Part shown: positions 1,909-62,329 of the stretch, piece by piece
How the letters are laid out: each line of letters begins with the position of its first letter
How positions within the stretch are numbered: the first letter of the stretch is position 1
Origin: Octopus vulgaris
Taxonomy: Eukaryota
Assembly (NCBI GenBank): GCA_951406725.2
Contig: OX597817.1
Span: 150,288,001-150,352,000, forward strand
Direction: 5' to 3'
DNA: 64,000 bases
Translations under genes and position numbers: made by a program
Notes under the pieces: model-generated
The model's input: only the letters and a program-made list of their open reading frames with translations
Told to the model about the DNA's origin: nothing
The model's database searches: none

Positions 1909-3174
1909 AAAACAGGTTGCATTATTCATTTTTGCCATTCCTTTATCTACTTCCAATACAATCCATCACTCTCATCTCTTCCACTACCTTCTCATCCCAA
2001 TCACTCTGTTTCTACCATCACACCCTTGCTCTCATTTCCCTACCCAACCTGATTCTCCTGTCATGGCTGTCTCTTTCATTCATCTCGTCAACTAAATAAT
2101 TGAATAAGTGAGCACTATATAGAGTTGTTATGAGTCTCTAATCTTCAAGGGATAAATGCACCGTACAATTTTGGGTGCCACTAGAAATCCACCCAAGCAA
2201 GACATTCTGTAAAGTCGCTGACAAGTGAATTTAGAGGAACTTTTCACTTCGCTGAGAACATAGTAACCTCTCTAATGCTGGTGCCATGAAAAAAATGCAC
2301 ACAATACATTTTGTAGAGTGTTTGATATCAGGAAAATCATCAATTCAGAGCCACCAAGTAACTCACAAGACAACGAATTATGAGAAGAGCAGGAGCATTT
2401 GAGGAGGTGAACTCATGTCAGAGGATTAAAGGTTAGAGGGTGACAAAGAGACAGAGAGGCAGTAACAGGTGGGGGAATTGGAAGAGGTGATCTAGTAACA
2501 GATGGTGAAAGGTTAGAGTGTGACAGAGAAATAGAGAGGCAGAAATAGGTGTCTTGCTATAGAGGATGTACATGGTTATCCACCGAGCGAGACAAAGAGA
2601 GAAAGAGAGAGAGAGTAACCAAGAATGAGGGTAGAAATAGGTTTGCTGCTGTAAAGGAGATATCTGGTTACCCAGCCAGAGGAAAGAGTGAGGAAAAGAG
2701 GGAGAGGGAGAGTAGGAAACAGCAAAAGTATAAGAGAGAGCAGGAGAGAGATGGTGAAGTGTCAGGGTATACTCATAAGTAACAAGGATCAGAGCATAGA
2801 TATGATGGCAGAGTAAAGAAAAGAGAGGTATGAAGGTCATAATATGCACAGTCAGGTGTTGTTAAGAAGGTGCAAGTAGGGAGCGGGGATTGCAGTGACT
2901 GACAAAAACCTGGGTAGAGGGCAAGAAAGAGGATTGGAAGACAATCATAGTTTATGAAGAGGAAATGTGAGGAAGAGAAAGATGCTTTTTAGAATGGATG
3001 TAGTTTGGTTTCTTGGGGTAGGGTGTGTGAAAAGTTTGTTGTTACATGGGGTGGGACACAACTCTTCTAGTTTTGCTGATGTGGGCAGGTCTTCTCTAGA
3101 ACCTCATATCACCAAACATCTCAGTTCATATATATATACGTGGCAAATGCTCAGGAGCAATAAACACTGGAAAT

Positions 3175-3801
3175 GTGCAGAGACCAACTTCTGCCACGTT
3201 CCAAGGAGACAAACTAGAAGTAGTTGATAGCTTCCGCTACCTAGGAGACCAAGTCAGTAGCGGCGGTGGGTGTGCTGAAAGTGTAACTGCTAGAGTAAGA
3301 ATAGCCTGGGCAAAGTTTAGAGAGCTCTTACCCCTGCTGGTGACAAAAGGCCTCTCGCTCAGAGTAAAAGGCAGACTGTATGATGCATGTGTACGTACAG
3401 CCATGCTACATGGTAGTGAAACATGGGCCGTGACTGCTGAGGATATGTGTAAGCTCGCAAGAAATGAAGCCAGTATGCTCCGATGGATGTGTAATGTCAG
3501 TGTTCATAATCGTCAGAGTGTAAGTTCCTTGAGAGAAAAGTTGAACCTAAGAAGCGTCAGTTGTGGTGTGCAAGAGAGACGGCTGCGCTGGTATGGTCAT
3601 GTGACGAGAAAGGCTGAAGATAGTTGTGTGCAAAAGTGCTACACCCTAGCAGTTGAGGGAATCTGTGGAAGAGGTAGACCCAGGAAAACCTGGGACGAGG
3701 TGGTGAAGCACGACCTTCGAACTTTAGGTCTCACTAAGGAAATGTCTAGAGACCGAGACCTATGGAAGTATGCTGTGTGTGAGAAGACCCGGCAAGACTA
3801 G
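3175..3801 (+). pseudogene. RTE reverse transcriptase C-terminal fragment (open 208 aa)
   Basis: Motifs as above; the RT core lies outside the 5'-truncated copy. Confidence 0.88.
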
Positions 3802-42589: not shown

Positions 42590-44640
42590 TAGTTTCCAAC
42601 GTTTAGAGGTAAAAGGTGTATTGTTCTTTAGTTTCCTTAAATGCGACGCCCCATGGTGGCAAAAATGTCGGACACCGATAGATGATTAAGAAAGTAGCCA
42701 GTGTACTGAAATGGTGGATCACAGATTAACCCAGAATATATCACAGAATGTTGCAATGTCCGTGGAAGCAATCACCCAGGCGACACTAACATAGAAGGCT
42801 CCATAGAGTTTGCATGTGATTCTATATATGGTGTTGGCGGATGTGTAACTGAGGTTTTGTGTAATTTACACTAGAATTTGGGGCCGGTGATAGTTGTGGC
42901 GTTATTAATTCAGGGAGCAGATGTGACATCTAGGGCTGAATTTGAAAGTATTTGTTTTGGAGTAGATAGGGGATAGGTGGATAGGGAGCTTCTAACAAAA
43001 ATGATACAGAGATCCTTTTCTCTTTTGAAAGAGAGTTTGGTTCGGGAAAGATCGGAGCAGCTGTGAGATCAGGGGATGCAAATTAGAAATTGCTAAGTAG
43101 TATGCGGAAGGGTTGCCGGCTGGCGAAATTTTTTTCCCACGAGAGTTCCGGAACCCAGTAATGAACTCATTTGCATACAGCCAATCAGAGCTCACCTTGA
43201 AAATCCACTTACTGTGTACTACTACAGTACAATCAGTCAGGCATAGAATGGTGTATGCCACTCTGTGAGTACAGCATAGCAGGTCTCACATAAGCACGAC
43301 ATCCCCCCATCATCCTCATAGATCAATTGAGCACCATCTCTATACGCAACTAACATTAGGTAACTATGCTCAGACTGAGATTAGTGATACTGCATGTACC
43401 CAAGGAGGGCGCAATATGACACAACGCCATATTGATAACGATGTTTCCAGATCAACACCAACATTTTAAATTAGGAATGTACAAAATCAGTCAAAAAATT
43501 AGGAAACTACACTCATTTACATTTTCTAGTAAATTACGCAAATTGGCAACACTTCTGGCATCATCGGTGAGCAGCTCTCCATTCAACTTTATACACTAAA
43601 TTTCACATTTGTCTCCCCTATTAACCCGTTTAGAACAGTTAGATTTTGCTATAACACACATTATCCACTGAACTCAGCCAAAGTATTTTTTGTGACTAGG
43701 TGGACGCTAGTTTGATAGTTGAGCTCTGATTGGCTGTATGCAAATGAGTTCATAACTGGGGTCCGGAACTCTCGTAGGGAAAAATTTCGCGGCCGGCTGG
43801 GGGATGAAGGAGAGAAGGATCCGATTTGTGGGTATGCGTGAAAAAAATCAGAAAATCATCGGACTTTCGACAGCATCGGTCCGAGAGGGTAAAATCTTCA
43901 GCCAATAGAGGATACTGTCGGCTGAAGAAGTGACGCATTTCTTTAGATTTAGAGCTAGAAGTTCGAATCGATGCTGTACAGTGAGAGGAATGAGAAAGTA
44001 CATTTGGAGTGTAATGAGAAATAGTGGAGGTAGTCGTGAGAGTTAGTGAGTTTGTAGTGGAGAGAGAGGACAGGTGGAAATTGTAGATCGTGACAGTGAT
44101 ATCAAGGAAGCAAATGGAGGTATTTGATATGGTACAAGTGAATTTTAAGAAAGAGTGGAATCTACCGACATGTTGATTGTTGTGGCGTGAATGAGGTTTA
44201 TGTAATTCAGACCCATCTTAGTACCCATAGCGATCTCTCTCAAATGTTGATAAAACTCGTCAGGAAAGAAGAGGCAATTAACAGTGAGGACGAGAGAAAT
44301 CGGGTGGTGAAGGTTAGTGGTATTGAGTAGGAGAAGGGAGCTGCATATGAGAATGGGCTATAAAAAAAGATAGGTCGTCGCTGTGGGGAAGACTTTGTTG
44401 AATGATTTGACGTTCGTAGTAAATAGAATTTAGGAATGTCTAGAGGGAATAGCAAACCAGTTAAAGGGGTTCAGAGCATGGTTGGTGCCCTTAATATGTG
44501 TTAGTAAGGCAGAGATAAGGAGTTATAGCAGTTTATTGAGGAACATGGAGAAAGGTTGGGTGAGACAGTCCCTGGCAAAGACAATAGGACAATTGTGGAT
44601 TGTCGACTTTAAGGATTCTAGAGATGAAATAACGGAGGTA
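42590..44640 (-). mobile_element. Decayed Penelope-like element (RT plus GIY-YIG endonuclease)
   Basis: Minus-strand remnants PKFYLL, DVKSF, FYQH..IAMGTKMG, KFTCTISNTSICFLDI, EMRHFF..YP, PRCHIC..ITGP..TSANTIYRITC...RLGDCF, in PLE order with many stops. Confidence 0.8.
43120..43792. mobile_element. TIR element (same TIRs, CCGG flanks), copy 2, inserted in the Penelope relic
   Basis: ccgg|ctggcgaaatttttttcccacgagagttccgg ... ccggaactctcgtagggaaaaatttcgcgg|ccgg. Confidence 0.85.
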
Positions 44641-48233: not shown

Positions 48234-48278
48234 ATGCAACTGACGAAGCCTAAGGAGATAGAAATGTGCATCTAGCAA
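48234..48278 (+). ncRNA. Degenerate minimal hammerhead-like motif
   Basis: augcaa-CUGACGA-agccuaaggagaua-GAAAUGUGCAUC/uagca. Core intact; stems I and II imperfect. Confidence 0.45.
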
Positions 48279-50210: not shown

Positions 50211-52219
50211 CGGTAGAGATAGATTAGTAGACAATATTATAAAATGTCGGAGTCAGCAATTGTGACGATAAAAATTTGTTGTTATTATAATCGCATACTG
50301 TAGGATGTGAAAGATGAACAATGCGTAAAGTTTTAAGAAAGTGTTTATTTACCGTTACGCTACAAATACCTTGCCTCGACGAGCAGGTTATGATAAATCC
50401 AAAAGCATGCGAAGTAAAGTTTGTGTTTGTGTCCACTTCATTGTTTAGTAGTAAATAGAGAGAGATAGAATGATGTTGCAAGAGAACAGAACTAAAGCTA
50501 GTGAGAGTTGGAGGGTTGTGGGACGTTGACTCACAGTTGCTGACAGTAAACTTCATTTCTCCCTCTGACCAAGGTTCTAGCTGGTCAACTAGACTTCGTC
50601 GTCACCAAAGTGACTACTTGGTTGATTCGTCACCGACTAGTGACTAACTGATTTTTGCTTGGGGCGTGCTAGCTTATATGACTATCCAGAAGGATAGATA
50701 TATCATTGAGAGCAAAAGATTTAGTTGGTGGTCTTGTAAATTCTATTCTAGCTTTTGGTGAAGTAGAAGGGGTTAGAAAGGGTCAAGTGGTGAAGACATT
50801 ATTTCGGCCTAGCTAAAGGCATCTGGAAAATGTAAAAACTGCTGTCAGAGAAAACCCATTGTTCCATCGTGGGAAAAGTTCTGTAGCAGTGTTAATTTAA
50901 ATTTGCCTGTGGTGGATCGAATCCATTTCATGCTTGCAAAATCCACTACATCTCTATATATATTTCCCCATGGCCAATCATATTCTCGCAGAATACTGGA
51001 AATAACACTTATTTACAACTATCACACCATGTCAAGACAAGGCGACGTATATATTTATTTACACGATGGGCTTCTTACAGTTTCCATCTACCAAATTTAT
51101 TCGCAAAACTTTGGTTGACATGGAACAATAGTAGAAAACACTTTCCCAAGGTGCCATGCAGTGGGACTGAACCTGAGACTGTTTGGATGGGAGACGCCTA
51201 AATATCTACTTTTGTTATCTTCAGGGGTTCACTTTGATTATCAATTATTCAAACTTGTACTGGCCCAAATTCTTCGTAACTATTTTTCATTGTGTTAAAA
51301 CCTGCTCGAAGCACGTCTGGTTAAACTATACAAGTAATGTCCAATAACAGAGAAGCTCTTTCTTGCCTGCATAGATTGGCCTTCATTCTTAATTTATGAA
51401 AGTTATTTCTTTTTCTTTGAGAAAGTCGCTAACATTTGCCACTAGGTTTTAGTTTTCTTTCTTCAACTAAGAGGAAAATTTCACCTGAAAAGTATTTTTG
51501 CACTTGTCATTCAGTACATAACCTCAAACCACCACCTTATGGAACATATACTTTCTTTACAATTTCTTGCGGATAAAATCTCAGGCTTATATAGCATCCG
51601 GAGTTAAAACTTACATCTTAAAAGCCAAATTTACAGAAAGGATAAAAATACTAACAACTATGTCATCGTTTGGATTAATAAGTGGCGGAATAAATAGAGA
51701 AGAGATTAAGAAGATTCTCAAAAATTACATTTTAAACGATATTTTTTCACTTCACCAAATAAAATTTAGCTCTTAACTATTTTCATGATACTGAGGATGT
51801 CGATACAAAATTAACCTAGATTTACATTCTATAGTTTATGTTATACGTACCTGTTGCTGTGGAAATATTAATCGTTGTAATCAGAAATAGATTACACGAG
51901 ATGAACTCATACTTGCGTGAAGCAAACCAATTCTGACTGTAACTCGATATTTTTGCTTGCGTTATTCAACAAAAAACTGTAATAGTTGATGTTAACTATT
52001 CACACCTCCCGTCTTTAATCAGAACGGAACTATAACAGGACCATTATTGGACACTTGCTATGAAAATTGAAATTTAAGGACAGAAAAAAAAAAGAACAAA
52101 TATTTTTGTAAAGTCATATTTGACGTGTTCAAGTACATTCGGACGTGATAAGACATTCCGCTGGGGAAATAGTCAGGAGAGAAAAGTCTGCTTTTAGACA
52201 TGTGTGAAGATACATTTCT

Positions 52220-52314
52220 GGGCTGTGAACGACGCCATTGGATCGTAGAACACATGCGTTTCCGCGTTTTCTCGCTTCGTCAGCGACGAAAACCAACTCT
52301 GTCACTCATAGCCC
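52220..52314 (-). ncRNA. Extended type I hammerhead ribozyme
   Basis: Minus strand: gggcuaugagugac-agag-uugg-uuu-ucgucg-CUGACGA-a gcg agaaaa cgc g-GAA-ACGC au GUGU-U/cuacga-u-ccaa-uggc-gucguucacagccc. Long interrupted stem I. Confidence 0.7.
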
Positions 52315-53427
52315 GATGAGAATAAAATTATTCCTTTTAAAACAGCATATGGTAAGTACGTTGGTGTCTGTAAATCTTAGTCAAGCTTGAATTAAATAAA
52401 TGATGCTGCAGGAAGCAGCGTCCAATAAAAAAAATATTCGTGTACAGTCATGTTTGACACATTCAAGTGCATTCATATTTCAAAGAGATTAAAATTTCAA
52501 GGATGCTTTAGTTAGTACTATAAAACAATTACTACGTAATGGAAAAATAATTTTGGTTGCATCGACAACCAGTCCTTCCACACTCAAACAGTAACAATAT
52601 CAGCTATGTAATTGACACAATAGCTATTATTAAATAATTGACAGAGAGAGAAATCATGTGTATAAAATATAAACATATATTATTATTCATCACATGATGG
52701 ATTTCAACTTTTGTATGAATTCTTCAAGTTAGTAAAAATATTATAATAGGATTTCCTTTCTCAGTTGGACAGATTGTGATGAGTTAACAGTTATTTATCC
52801 AACACAACACATTGCCCGTCTACATCATTGCTAAGCTTCAGTACAAGAAAATGCTAGAATTAGCATCATGAGGATGCCGCTCGTGTTTATGTTGTCTCTT
52901 CCCGTTTCAAGATTTATTTTAAAGTTTTCTTCATATTCCTAGGTTCTTCCTATCTAGCTAGGCTGCGTAGGAAGGAAGTAAATATTATCAGCAGAAGGTG
53001 AAATAAAGAAATACAAAAGTAAGAACATAAACAATTGTATTACATGATTATATAACTAGACTAGCAGCAAGGAATTTGAATCATATTTAGAAAGTTCTAA
53101 CAGCTGCATATTTTTTTAACACGTCTTTCAGTTGATGCTAGATTCCTTTCCGGTTACAAACAAGCAAAGTTACCAGGTTTAAAATACTTCTGAGAAAAGG
53201 AGACAATAGAAAGAGCTTCTATATATCCATACATCATCCAGTCAGCAATTAAATAAAGTAATGCCAGTAATGAACTTAAACATTGTCGAGGAGGTGGAAT
53301 AAAATTAAATATACACACAAATTCTTCCATTTTTTTTCTTTTTATTGTTTCGTTTTCCTAAATTACATTGGCCGGGGAGGTGGGGAGGGCATGTAAACAG
53401 GAGAAATGGCACTCAAAACATAAGTAT

Positions 53428-54040: not shown

Positions 54041-54292
54041 ATATATACATATTTTTAATATTCAATAGAAGCAACAGAGTGACTCAAAAGCCGACAGTTT
54101 CGTACATCAGCACTGATCAAACTAGTTACAGATGAAGGGGTTAAATATTTATATACCAGTGTATTTGTTTCAGAACTATCCAGAAAAATACCATTATCGC
54201 TGGTATATAAATTTATAACTTCTTGATTAGTAACTAGTTTGGTAGGTGCTAACGCTCGAAAATCTGTCCTTGAATCTCTCTGTTGCTTCCAG

Positions 54293-54632
54293 TAAAGGGT
54301 AAAGACCCCCTTCGGTCATGAATGACCATGGGATTGCACCTAGAAAGTTACCCTCCTAGACACAAGTCCGGGCAAGGTTGTTTATGGAAGGCTAGCAGTC
54401 GCCCATGCATACCAGCCTCCCCTCTCCACGCCACCAGTGTTATCCAAGTGAAAGACAAAGGTCGATACAGCTTGGCACCTGTGACGTCGCAACTCATTTC
54501 TACAGCTGAGTGAACTGGAGCAACGTGAAATAAAGTGCCTTGCTCGAGAACACAACACGCAGCCCGGTCCGGGATTCGAGCTCACAACCTCACGATCGTA
54601 AGCTCGACGCTCTAACCACTGAGCCATGCGCC
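54293..54632 (-). mobile_element. SINE family C
   Basis: Near-identical inverse of 6228-6561. Confidence 0.9.
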
Positions 54633-58713: not shown

Positions 58714-58851
58714 TTATTTGTAGGTTAACAAAGCAACCAATGGTTTCATGCAGTTAAATCTCTTAACACTTATCAAGCTTACTAACTCATTCAGCTCGAT
58801 ATTAGCATATATATATATATATTTTATTTAAAGGACACAATACGTCTTTAA

Positions 58852-58905
58852 GTGCTACTAATAGTTTCATATGTTGAGAAATATATCGAACATATTCATC
58901 AGGCC
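58852..58905 (-). ncRNA. Type I hammerhead ribozyme motif in the arm of a palindrome (58823-59068)
   Basis: gggc-CUGAUGA-AUAUGUU(13-nt loop)AACAUAU-GAA-ACU auu AGU-A/gcac. 7-bp stem II; stem I short with one mismatch. Confidence 0.6.
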
Positions 58906-60663
58906 CAAACCTATATGCTGCCTACTGTTTTTTTTTTTTCGTGTTTGTAATTCAATTTTTTTTTTAGTTCGTTATATGTGGTTTGTGCCTGATGAACATG
59001 TTAGATATTTTGTAACATAAAAAACTATTAGTAACACTCAAAGAAATTAATTGTGTCCTTTAAATAAATAATATTTATCTCACCAGGTGGAGTACTTTTC
59101 TTGTTGAATTTTCTATCACAGAAAGTACATTATATAATATATATTTATATCGCTTAAGCACTGCGATATTAATATCCTGGTTTAAAATGTATGTTTCTGG
59201 ACTGAGCGCTAATAAGAAGATCGGTTATTCTTTTGTCATCACTTTGTGTGTGTGTGTGTGTGTATGATAATTTTGTTTTTGTGTTATTGGCAAAATGGCC
59301 ATCCTGAGATAGAAAAAAAAAAAATATATATATGATAGAACCAAACCCACTAACAAGACTTTGATCAGCCCAGAGCTTATAGTAGAAGACACTTCTTGCC
59401 CAAGGTGCCATGTAGTGGAACAAAGCCTAAACTAAGCAATGGGGAAGCAAACTGTTTAATCATAGCCACACACACATTATATATGCGAAAGATACATTCT
59501 AACACACATCTCCATTTCACATGTATATAGATAGGTACAGGTGTGGCAAGGAGTTTTCTTTCCAACCACATGGTTTGAGGTTCAGTCCCACTGTGTGGCA
59601 CCTTGGGCAAATGTCTTCTACTACAGCAGCAGCAGGCTGACCGAAGCCTTGGGTGGGTTTGGAAGACGGAAACAAAGCTCGTCGCATGTGTATTGGTATG
59701 CGTGTGCATCTTTGTGCCTGTCTTCCACCATTACTAACCGGTATTGGTGTGTTAGAATAAATACCAATTCATTCGACTAAAAATATTTTTAAAGATGGTG
59801 TCCCACCATGGCTGCAATCATTTGACACAAAAGTAAAAGATTTTAAAAAAATAAAATTTAAAAAAAAAAGAGAGAGTTCAGTTTTGGACTATCTTAACTA
59901 ACCTCAAAATGGTCCAGAAACAAAATGCAAAACAGTAACACCAAAGTTTTACTATATTGGTTAGACATTGCTACAAAAACACATACCTTTAATCTTATGA
60001 CACAATTTTAATAAATTAAATGACATATACATTGCCATGTAAAAAGCACCCATTACCCTTTATAAAATGGTTGGCATTAGGAAAGGCATCTTGTCATAGA
60101 AACCATGCCACAACAGACAACTGGAGTATAGTGCAGATCTCTGCTTTGCCAGCTCCTGTCAAACCATCCAACCCATGCCAGCATGGTAAATGGACGTTAA
60201 ATAATGATATATAAATTGCATAAGTAATTTTTTTTGATACTTTCATTTTTAAGAAAATTCACAATCCCCTGGATCAAAAGCCACCGTACAAGATGAAACA
60301 AAAGGTTAAAAGAATCTTTCCTTAAACATCTACTCTATGATAACACATAACCAAAATCACCATCATCATCGTTTAACGTCCGCTTTCCATGCTGGCATGG
60401 GCTGGACGATTTGACCAAGGGCTCGCGAACCAGATGACTGCACCAGGCTTCAATCTTGATCTGGCAGAGTTTCTACAGCTGGATGCCCTTCCTAACGACA
60501 ACCACTCCGAGAGTGTAGTGGGTGCATTTACGTGCCAGTGAGGCGGTACTGGCAACGACAATGCACAAGTAAATGATTAGAAAGAGGTTGCTGTTTTCAT
60601 TTATCAGTCACCTCATTAAAACCAGTTAATTTTATTACACAAGTAATTGTTAACAGAAGACAT

Positions 60664-60893: not shown

Positions 60894-61710
60894 CATCCAA
60901 TACACAAATTCTCATCAAGAATCTTGCAAACCAAATACGAATACAAGTAATTCATAAAAAATAAACAAAAATGCAATTTACTTCTAAGTTTGTGCAAAAT
61001 AAATAAATAAATAAAGTAATTATGAATCGAGATGCAAGTATACCCAGAGACAAATGTAGTCAAGATCAAAAGCAGTTGTAATAATGACTATGGTCTCTTA
61101 TAGAGTGTCGGAGATTCCATTTTGAAACAAATGATGAAAGATAAAACAAGTTAGAAAGTGAAGCATGATCCAATTATTCTGAAGCATTTACTTATTCACT
61201 TTAGTAATTCAGTGAAGCCAAGTTTTATGGGTGTGGTGTTAACAATGAGGTTTACATTTCCTGTTATTGCTAGTTTCATTTATAATTATACTGCCTTCCC
61301 CATAGATGACTCTTAAGAAAAGTCAGAGCTTATTTATACATATACAAGATATATTTTTCTGACATTTTTCAGTTCCACCAAAATTGGTGTACACAAGTAC
61401 AGGAATCTGACCGGCTGCCATCAGTTTGTGCCAGTCACCAAGAATTGGGTGTTTTTAGACCCCAAAGAGCTGATTTCCTCCATAAAATCAGGATAACTGC
61501 AGCCCACCTGAGAAATGAGCCCCACGAAATGGAGTGACTGCTGCAGTGAGTGTCATTAGCCATTCTCCACAGCAACACCTTTGCAAATGTCTGCAAGGTG
61601 CAGCTAAATATGCCACTTATTCTGAAGTATACAACCTGCTACCCACCCCCTGCCCATCTGCTGCTTAATCTCCACCACACTTTTTCCTATATATATATAT
61701 ATATATTTAA

Positions 61711-62175
61711 TGCACATTACTTACATTTGACAGATATTTGTCCTCATCTTGTTTGTTAGCACAATGTTTTGGCTGATATACCCTCCAGCCTTCATCAGGT
61801 GTCTTGGGGAAATTTTGAACCTGGGTTCTCATTCCTAAGGTATTTTTCAATATTATTATTATTATTATTCAGGTCACTGCCTGGAATCGAACCCAGAATC
61901 TTAGGGTTAGTAGCCCACTCTCTAAACCACTACACCATATGTCCATGGGCATATAGTGTAGTGGTTAAGAGCGCGGGCTACTAACCCCAAGATTCTAAGT
62001 TCGATTCCAGGCAGTAACCTGAATAATAACAACAACATCGAAAAATACCTTAGAAATGAGAACCCAGGTTCAAAATTTCCCCAAGACACCTGATGAAGGC
62101 TGGAAGGTATATCAGCCAAAACATTGTGCTAACAAACAAGATGAAGACAAATATGTCAAATGAAAATAATGTACA
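61711..62175. mobile_element. Spacerless ~230-bp-arm palindrome: head-to-head tRNA-like promoters, each followed by a decayed minimal HHR
   Basis: Centre ccatgg at 61943-61948. The arm has tagtgtagtgg and gttcgattcc boxes, then gacac-CTGATGA-aggctg..cagcc-aaaacatt-gtgc (62085-62129). Confidence 0.85.
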
Positions 62176-62329
62176 TAATTCCTCATCTCTTAAATATAGA
62201 ACAGTAGTTTTAATGTGTTTACTTTCTTTTCTTCCTATTCAAATAATGTTATTAAAAACAAAGTTCAGTTTTATTGTTTAAAAAAAATATATACAAATAA
62301 ATACAATACACACACAAGAATTCTTTCAA

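Follow-up and report, generated by a model that had tools for sequence, protein, structure and literature searches.

A 64,000-nucleotide stretch of Octopus vulgaris DNA (hereafter the window), an AT-rich piece of animal DNA dense in microsatellites and in short interspersed repeats that appear to be of octopus type, had been described from its letters as holding a retrozyme-like unit, with a minus-strand hammerhead ribozyme set between two direct repeats. Here we ask whether this ribozyme and its repeats belong to a mobile element, what kind of element that would be, and how the copy came to lie where it does. Statements about earlier work refer to excerpts of the cited sources.

The hammerhead and its fold

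The window carries a type I hammerhead on its minus strand (Table 1). Both core boxes (CUGACGA and GAAA) and the GUU ending at 52249 lie where the preliminary description had placed them, and the CUGANGA box, the GAAA box and the NUH cut site follow one another in type I order. A type I descriptor, mildly fitted in that it was composed once the motif was known, matched the window once and none of 300 dinucleotide-shuffled 64-kb windows. The proposed check against Infernal Hammerhead_1 came out negative, with no hammerhead family in Rfam matching at the gathering threshold or at E values up to 10.

Folding gives a stem I of 22 pairs and two mismatches across two internal loops, so that the two-loop extension described earlier stands, but the single mismatch described with it becomes two, C·U at 52285/52247 and A·C at 52309/52225. 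The proximal part of stem I, beyond which the looped extension runs, is about 6 bp long, with five of its six pairs formed in this copy, and the 17 distal pairs have pairing probabilities of 0.48–1.0 (at least 0.88 in 16 of them). Stem III is the near-palindrome that had been reported, a short sequence predicted to allow a dimer, with a self-duplex of −12.4 kcal/mol. Next to G12 there is no Watson-Crick 10.1–11.1 pair; in this copy the position is an A·G, followed by three G-C pairs, and an extra A follows A9. That the G10.1–C11.1 closure, highly conserved according to the excerpts of PMC4209133, is here either absent or flanked by an extra base counts against a retrozyme reading. A mismatch at the base of stem II also occurs in the active axolotl motif Amex2 (excerpts of PMC7229834), where it is U·U rather than the A·G of this copy or the A·A of others.

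Table 1. Coordinates in the window of the hammerhead, its terminal repeats and the whole insertion
Feature	Position	Strand	Basis or remark
Hammerhead core, first box (C3–A9)	52277..52283	-	sequence and fold
Hammerhead core, second box (G12–A15.1)	52259..52262	-	sequence and fold
Predicted cleavage site, after GUU	52248..52249	-	sequence and hammerhead numbering
Stem I, 5′ arm	52284..52314	-	fold; C at 52285 is a mismatch peculiar to this copy
Stem I, 3′ arm	52220..52248	-	fold
Stem II: three G-C pairs, 6-nt loop, A·G closure (A·A in other copies)	52263..52276	-	
Stem III, near-palindrome of 10 nt that is perfect in other copies; dimer interface by prediction	52250..52259	-	
Small hairpin directly 3′ of stem I; two RNA-type contigs end in its loop	52200..52215	-	
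Whole insertion: one 334-nt unit plus 43-nt overlap (1.13 units)	52098..52474	-	repeat pair and contig depth
Terminal repeat, 5′ copy (overlap)	52432..52474	-	35/43 to 52098–52140; related contigs align there
Terminal repeat, 3′ copy, element sequence	52098..52140	-	summed depth 203–236 vs 11.6 in flanks
Block most matched by other copies, 3′ end in ribozyme sense	52098..52177	-	contig tables

Terminal repeats and a dispersed family of copies

The two repeats that bracket the hammerhead, 334 bp apart as first noted, are identical at 35 of 43 positions in an ungapped alignment, which blastn lengthens to 46 nt (E 4.6e-6), and no comparable pair with a spacing of 150–500 bp occurred in five block-shuffled windows. 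The unit they define is 334 bp long, non-coding and 40–41% GC, and thus falls with its type I hammerhead within the published range of 150–450 bp and GC below 50% (excerpts of PMC7229834); the flanks are AT-rich, at 32% GC. A run from another study, X3, contains all sampled words, and a contig of run X1, which may be the source, spans the unit without any difference inside it. The spanning contig and the X3 words together rule out an assembly artefact.

The stretch or part of it was found in 17 of 24 listed runs, under four organism labels and from 10 studies, and contigs of four of these were aligned to 51650–52950 at 80% likeness. X1 is DNA-type; X8 (1,503 million letters) bears another organism label, is of unrecorded type and was grouped with X1 as DNA-type; X9 and X11, from two studies, are RNA by guess. 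No run with the stretch is recorded as RNA, which says nothing about expression, and of the runs guessed to be RNA only the two aligned ones enter the analysis. In X1, 43 of 44 contigs match only partly and 39 are less than 90% alike; in X8 the corresponding counts are 37 and 36 of 41. Depth in X1 stays at 11.6, the single-contig level, in every bin outside 52046–52485 and ranges from 15 to 236 within the unit, highest at 52090–52177, where neither summed contig depth nor contig counts are to be read as copy number. The limits of this extra depth agree with the repeat pair, and other contigs extend from the 3′ repeat copy into 52141–52185. The unit belongs to a dispersed multi-copy family.

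Because the extra contig depth includes the terminal repeat, the repeat is element sequence and not duplicated host DNA. For the same reason a target-site duplication of the SINE or LINE kind was rejected, the terminal repeat being the most multi-copy part of the insertion. No flush target-site duplication was found either, the best match between the flanks being 10 nt with one mismatch, AT-rich and not flush. The family data also refute a chance motif beside a chance repeat, to which we assign a negligible probability: the absence of an Rfam match, and a hammerhead fold that is not the predicted minimum, would suit such a coincidence, but it is opposed by the descriptor result (0 of 300 shuffles), the repeat result (0 of 5) and the dozens of related contigs that fall within the unit alone.

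The contigs show permuted and inverted relatives, observed among the listed pieces and loose ends. A joint from 52311 back to 52098 (a step back of 214) occurs in one contig each of X1 and X8, which may be one orthologous locus. In X1 the piece beyond this joint covers 52098–52171, so that this relative has no fewer than 74 nt of 3′-block sequence lying 5′ of its ribozyme, where the window copy has 43, and another X1 contig joins 52163 to 52429, placing both repeat blocks in one contig. One X8 contig links 52142 to 52326 with a change of strand, and in the same run the majority letters that precede 52100 (six contigs) resemble by eye those before the second repeat; in X9, one contig runs through the ribozyme into letters that by eye resemble the inverted 52130–52150 region. 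The joints carry no measure of the length between their two sides, so that the 334-nt period is one measured in the window copy only. There is no tandem array and no second ribozyme of the family within the 64-kb window.

The earlier description of the insertion as a monomer plus overlap fits both the 334-nt unit with its 43-nt overlap and the permuted copies. A single-copy locus with no relatives, the outcome it had named as contrary, is not what we observe, because the family is multi-copy, includes permuted copies and carries variants that favor the fold.

These variants were placed on the ribozyme fold. Among the 19 listed variant sites in 52219–52315, 13 are paired and six unpaired, two of the latter being core positions. 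Listed variants at 9 of the 13 paired sites keep or create a pair, one of them through a double change at 52238 and 52296 that apparently lies in a single X8 contig. The four that break a pair, and the two that change the core, weigh against a retrozyme reading; each such change is found in one contig per run, apparently from one decayed locus. None of the five variants present in at least three contigs of a run breaks a pair. The variant at 52285 turns the C·U of stem I into A-U (four contigs in X1, three in X8), that at 52252 makes stem III a perfect palindrome (three and three) with a self-duplex of −16.2 kcal/mol, that at 52230 changes U-G to U-A (four and six), that at 52235 lies within an internal loop, and that at 52263 converts the A·G at the base of stem II to A·A (three and two). 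Of the two caveats raised at the outset, the mismatch in stem I thus reflects decay of this copy, while a non-canonical stem II base is also found in other copies. Judged site by site rather than by a covariation analysis of full relative sequences, the variants lend modest support to selection having acted on the hammerhead fold in the family.

Three further common variants, at 52131, 52135 and 52138, turn 52123–52146 (plus strand, in the conserved 3′ block) into a near-palindrome, which is possibly a recognition hairpin.

State of the copy and the RNA-type contigs

For the window copy, the predicted minimum is a structure that pairs the 5′ arm of stem I with the stem II region, and the hammerhead fold is 13.9 kcal/mol less stable. 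Substituting the family letter at 52285 narrows this gap to 6.8 kcal/mol and raises the probability of the third stem I pair from 0.20 to 0.84. This copy is thus predicted to be a poor ribozyme now, prone to misfold. Folded as a circle, the unit is 56–57% paired and no more stable than its shuffles (z −0.5 and −1.2), an ordinary fold that, although taken from a decayed copy, speaks against a retrozyme reading in comparison with the highly self-paired circles in the excerpts of PMC7229834.

Of the 43 repeat sites, 8 differ between the two copies (19%; Jukes-Cantor distance 0.21). The insertion is also present in an X8 contig, which over 825 nt shows nine letter differences and a single gap of 22 nt, and is therefore much older than the split between these two organism labels. 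If the repeats began identical, applying to this octopus the clock in the excerpts of PMC13282606 (0.09 for 25 million years) places the insertion roughly 30 million years ago, with wide error. The single copy is probably an old, decayed fossil, inactive at this locus.

RNA-type contigs in X11 (52206–52555) and X9 (52209–52413 and 52431–52603) come from this very locus. They cross the predicted cut site and reach 80–130 nt into the unique right flank, which stands against a retrozyme reading, as does the finding of no circle junction or other joint in either run; contigs are unable to show absence, and the missing cover of 51650–52177 in X9 and X11 is not taken as evidence of silence. Circular RNAs are lost from poly(A) libraries. 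These contigs are strandless, of depth 3–4 and of unrecorded library type, and they are compatible with weak read-through, with antisense RNA or with DNA carried into the library.

The contigs of X11 and X9 end at 52206 and 52209, about 40 nt past the cut and with no loose end, at a place where the DNA contigs continue, which weakly hints at a transcript end there. We think it very improbable that the old copy has been co-opted and helps to define or destabilize the end of a host transcript reading through it. Such a role could draw some weak encouragement from two studies agreeing on these ends and on the reach into the right flank, but the ends do not coincide with the cut, the depth is low, the RNA type of the strandless runs is a guess, and the copy is predicted to misfold. 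Nor was a host exon found: among 121 stop-free frames of at least 75 aa, a set that small exons would escape, Pfam gave one sub-threshold match and none that was convincing.

Origin of the insertion and relation to known elements

We consider it probable that the locus is an old dispersed copy of a 334-bp hammerhead repeat of the non-LTR-retrozyme type, one unit plus a 43-bp overlap, inserted by Penelope-like machinery from a circular or head-to-tail RNA and by now a poor ribozyme. Excerpts of PMC7229834 and PMC7761336 describe tandem units that are transcribed, self-cleaved, circularized and copied by reverse transcription into cDNA longer than a unit, for which Penelope-like elements are proposed as partner, and those of PMC11167929 describe a purified Penelope-type protein that nicks AT-rich DNA and primes inside the RNA downstream of the ribozyme. 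On this model, active family members would give multi-unit transcripts that cut themselves once in every unit, probably as dimers held by the palindromic stem III, and the unit-length RNA would be ligated into a circle or kept as a multimer. A Penelope-type enzyme would then nick AT-rich DNA and prime about 150 nt downstream of the cut, near 52098, and reverse transcription would cover 334 nt and halt 43 nt into a second round. The block at 52098–52177 is likely to be the region in which reverse transcription starts. The window copy agrees with this model in its AT-rich flanks, inverted relatives and 43-nt overshoot, and in a family depth that is highest at the 3′ end, some 150 nt beyond the cut. 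These data fit a circle and a linear multimer as template alike, and Penelope-type terminal extension gives the same shape too. Because it has only one cut site, the lone copy is unable to release a unit-length RNA or a circle.

Several features are likely signs of Penelope-type insertion, namely the opposite-strand joint in X8, the inverted continuation in X9, the want of a flush duplication, the AT-rich flanks and a nearby Penelope-like remnant. This remnant (43988–44609, minus strand, 8 kb from the unit, a decayed reverse transcriptase with stops and a frame change) places Penelope-like elements in the same genome; its best match in a protein search has E 4.9e-14, and when its long matches were scanned GIY-YIG was found in 10 of 10 and RVT_1 in 8 of 10 (E up to 0.001). 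At the DNA level it does not resemble the unit, which weighs against the retrozyme reading. No reverse-transcriptase and GIY-YIG frame adjoins this copy, and the ribozyme lacks the minimal Penelope form of long stem II, short stem I and no stem III. In tblastn, 10 Penelope-type proteins matched only 42877–44609 and one weak zinc-finger spot, with nothing in or near the unit.

The insertion might instead be a 5′-truncated piece of the pseudo-LTR of an autonomous Penelope-like element, with the 43-bp repeat as its "tail" and never a 334-nt unit or circle. This is the main alternative, one that we regard as unlikely, yet to be taken seriously. Excerpts of PMC8557442 report for such elements tails of 30–40 bp, which can sit at either end, and truncated copies in inverted orientation; PMC11167929 reports fixed internal starts of reverse transcription downstream of the ribozyme in one tested element, and PMC4209133 an extra A after A9 in Penelope-type ribozymes. 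The inverted joints, the 3′ depth peak and a 73-codon frame without stops (52279 to 52061) that crosses the ribozyme all accord with it. The relative whose 3′ block extends for 74 nt or more upstream of its ribozyme exceeds the tail length, though, and the hammerhead has type I proportions rather than the minimal 7–8-bp stem II and 4–5-bp stem I of PMC4209133. The negative tblastn result in and near the unit also speaks against it, although N-termini are poorly conserved.

A tandem array that is cut out would likewise yield a permuted, more-than-unit piece, so the copy could be what is left of a satellite-like repeat that spread as DNA, by unequal exchange or extrachromosomal DNA circles, with the ribozyme as passenger and no RNA intermediate for this copy. 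The preprint 10.64898/2026.07.22.740005 permits, in its excerpts, a birth from a Penelope terminus followed by local amplification, and the two RNA-type runs show no RNA circle. We nevertheless judge this improbable: the depth peak at one end and the inversions fit primed reverse transcription better, and the common variants favor the RNA fold. The retrozyme reading has to accommodate, for its part, that no tandem dimer or multimer was seen and that the 334-nt period comes from this copy only.

The kind of element is already described, and the copy is an ordinary member of it. With the metazoan non-LTR retrozymes of coral, mussel and axolotl (Cervera and de la Peña 2020, excerpts of PMC7229834) it shares the type I hammerhead, the non-coding unit of a few hundred bp with GC below 50%, multiple copies, no LTR and Penelope-like elements in the genome; it differs in being a lone 1.13-unit copy with no array seen, in its 10-nt palindromic stem III and ordinary circle fold, and in being known from DNA and contigs rather than from circular RNA. 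The vertebrate retrozyme monomers ("solo", excerpts of 10.64898/2026.07.22.740005) are likewise dispersed single units tied to Penelope termini, and are read there as offspring unable to transpose, whereas our host is an invertebrate and no autonomous partner with a matching terminus was identified in this analysis. The same preprint found cleavage in only 1 of 9 dimers tested. Penelope-like pseudo-LTRs (excerpts of PMC4209133, PMC11167929 and PMC8557442) have in common with the copy a type I ribozyme, a palindromic stem III region, an additional A behind A9, relatives that are truncated and inverted, an AT-rich site and no clear target-site duplication; the copy departs from them in its long looped stem I, short stem II, apparent 334-nt period and lack of an attached reverse-transcriptase frame. 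The hammerhead repeats of Schistosoma Sm-alpha and newt satellite 2 (excerpts of PMC6155905) also combine an extended looped stem I and weak stem III with a repeat of about 330 bp, but the hammerhead here matches no Rfam hammerhead model.

We found no report of a hammerhead retrozyme in octopus or other cephalopods, in a search of the main texts of mostly open-access papers. Octopus and cephalopods go unmentioned in the excerpts of PMC7229834, PMC5680766 and PMC7761336, and those of PMC8557442 name Octopus only for Naiad elements. The locus thus adds a host lineage without an earlier report in this search to those with hammerhead retrozyme-type repeats, through a family that escapes Rfam. One-unit-plus-overlap copies are the footprint predicted by the circle-template model, and a genome-wide set of them could test fixed-site Penelope-like priming on circles, which the papers still treat as hypothetical, while the non-canonical stem II base that copies share offers a cheap biochemical test of core tolerance. 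We would speculate, as a doubtful proposition, that in a new cephalopod retrozyme family the hammerhead works without a Watson-Crick stem II base, offset by a 10-bp palindromic dimer helix and the 22-pair stem I, that younger arrays elsewhere in the genome still make 334-nt circles, and that a constant 3′ end, some 150 nt beyond the cut, marks the site at which a Penelope-like enzyme primes on the circle.

Other searches and structures were set apart from the unit. Pattern scans for relatives in viral contigs gave 0 and 0; matches in metagenome contigs (4) and prokaryote genomes (2) were put down to chance, the rest of the ribozyme or unit being missing. A scan for bacterial promoters and terminators, not applicable to this host, gave 2 and 1 sites, which were disregarded. 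Another CTGACGAAG...GAAA string at 48240 (plus strand) fails the type I descriptor and has no similarity to the unit. A 233-aa stop-free frame at 3100–3801 (plus strand), with no Pfam match, is followed by an irregular tandem array at about 3.8–5.7 kb; we take the frame to resemble an RTE-type LINE reverse transcriptase in its C-terminal portion. At 54054–54303 lies a nested, MITE-like inverted repeat with arms of 62 and 34 nt. The inverted repeat at 58813–59078 has by eye a minimal hammerhead-like motif with a 7-bp stem II (minus strand, from 58902) and a decayed hammerhead-like copy on the plus strand near 58990. Finally, 61710–62176 is a near-perfect fold-back with arms of about 230 bp, each holding by eye a minimal hammerhead-like core (first box 62090–62096) whose second box is AAAA rather than GAAA, and looks like an inverted Penelope-type terminus.
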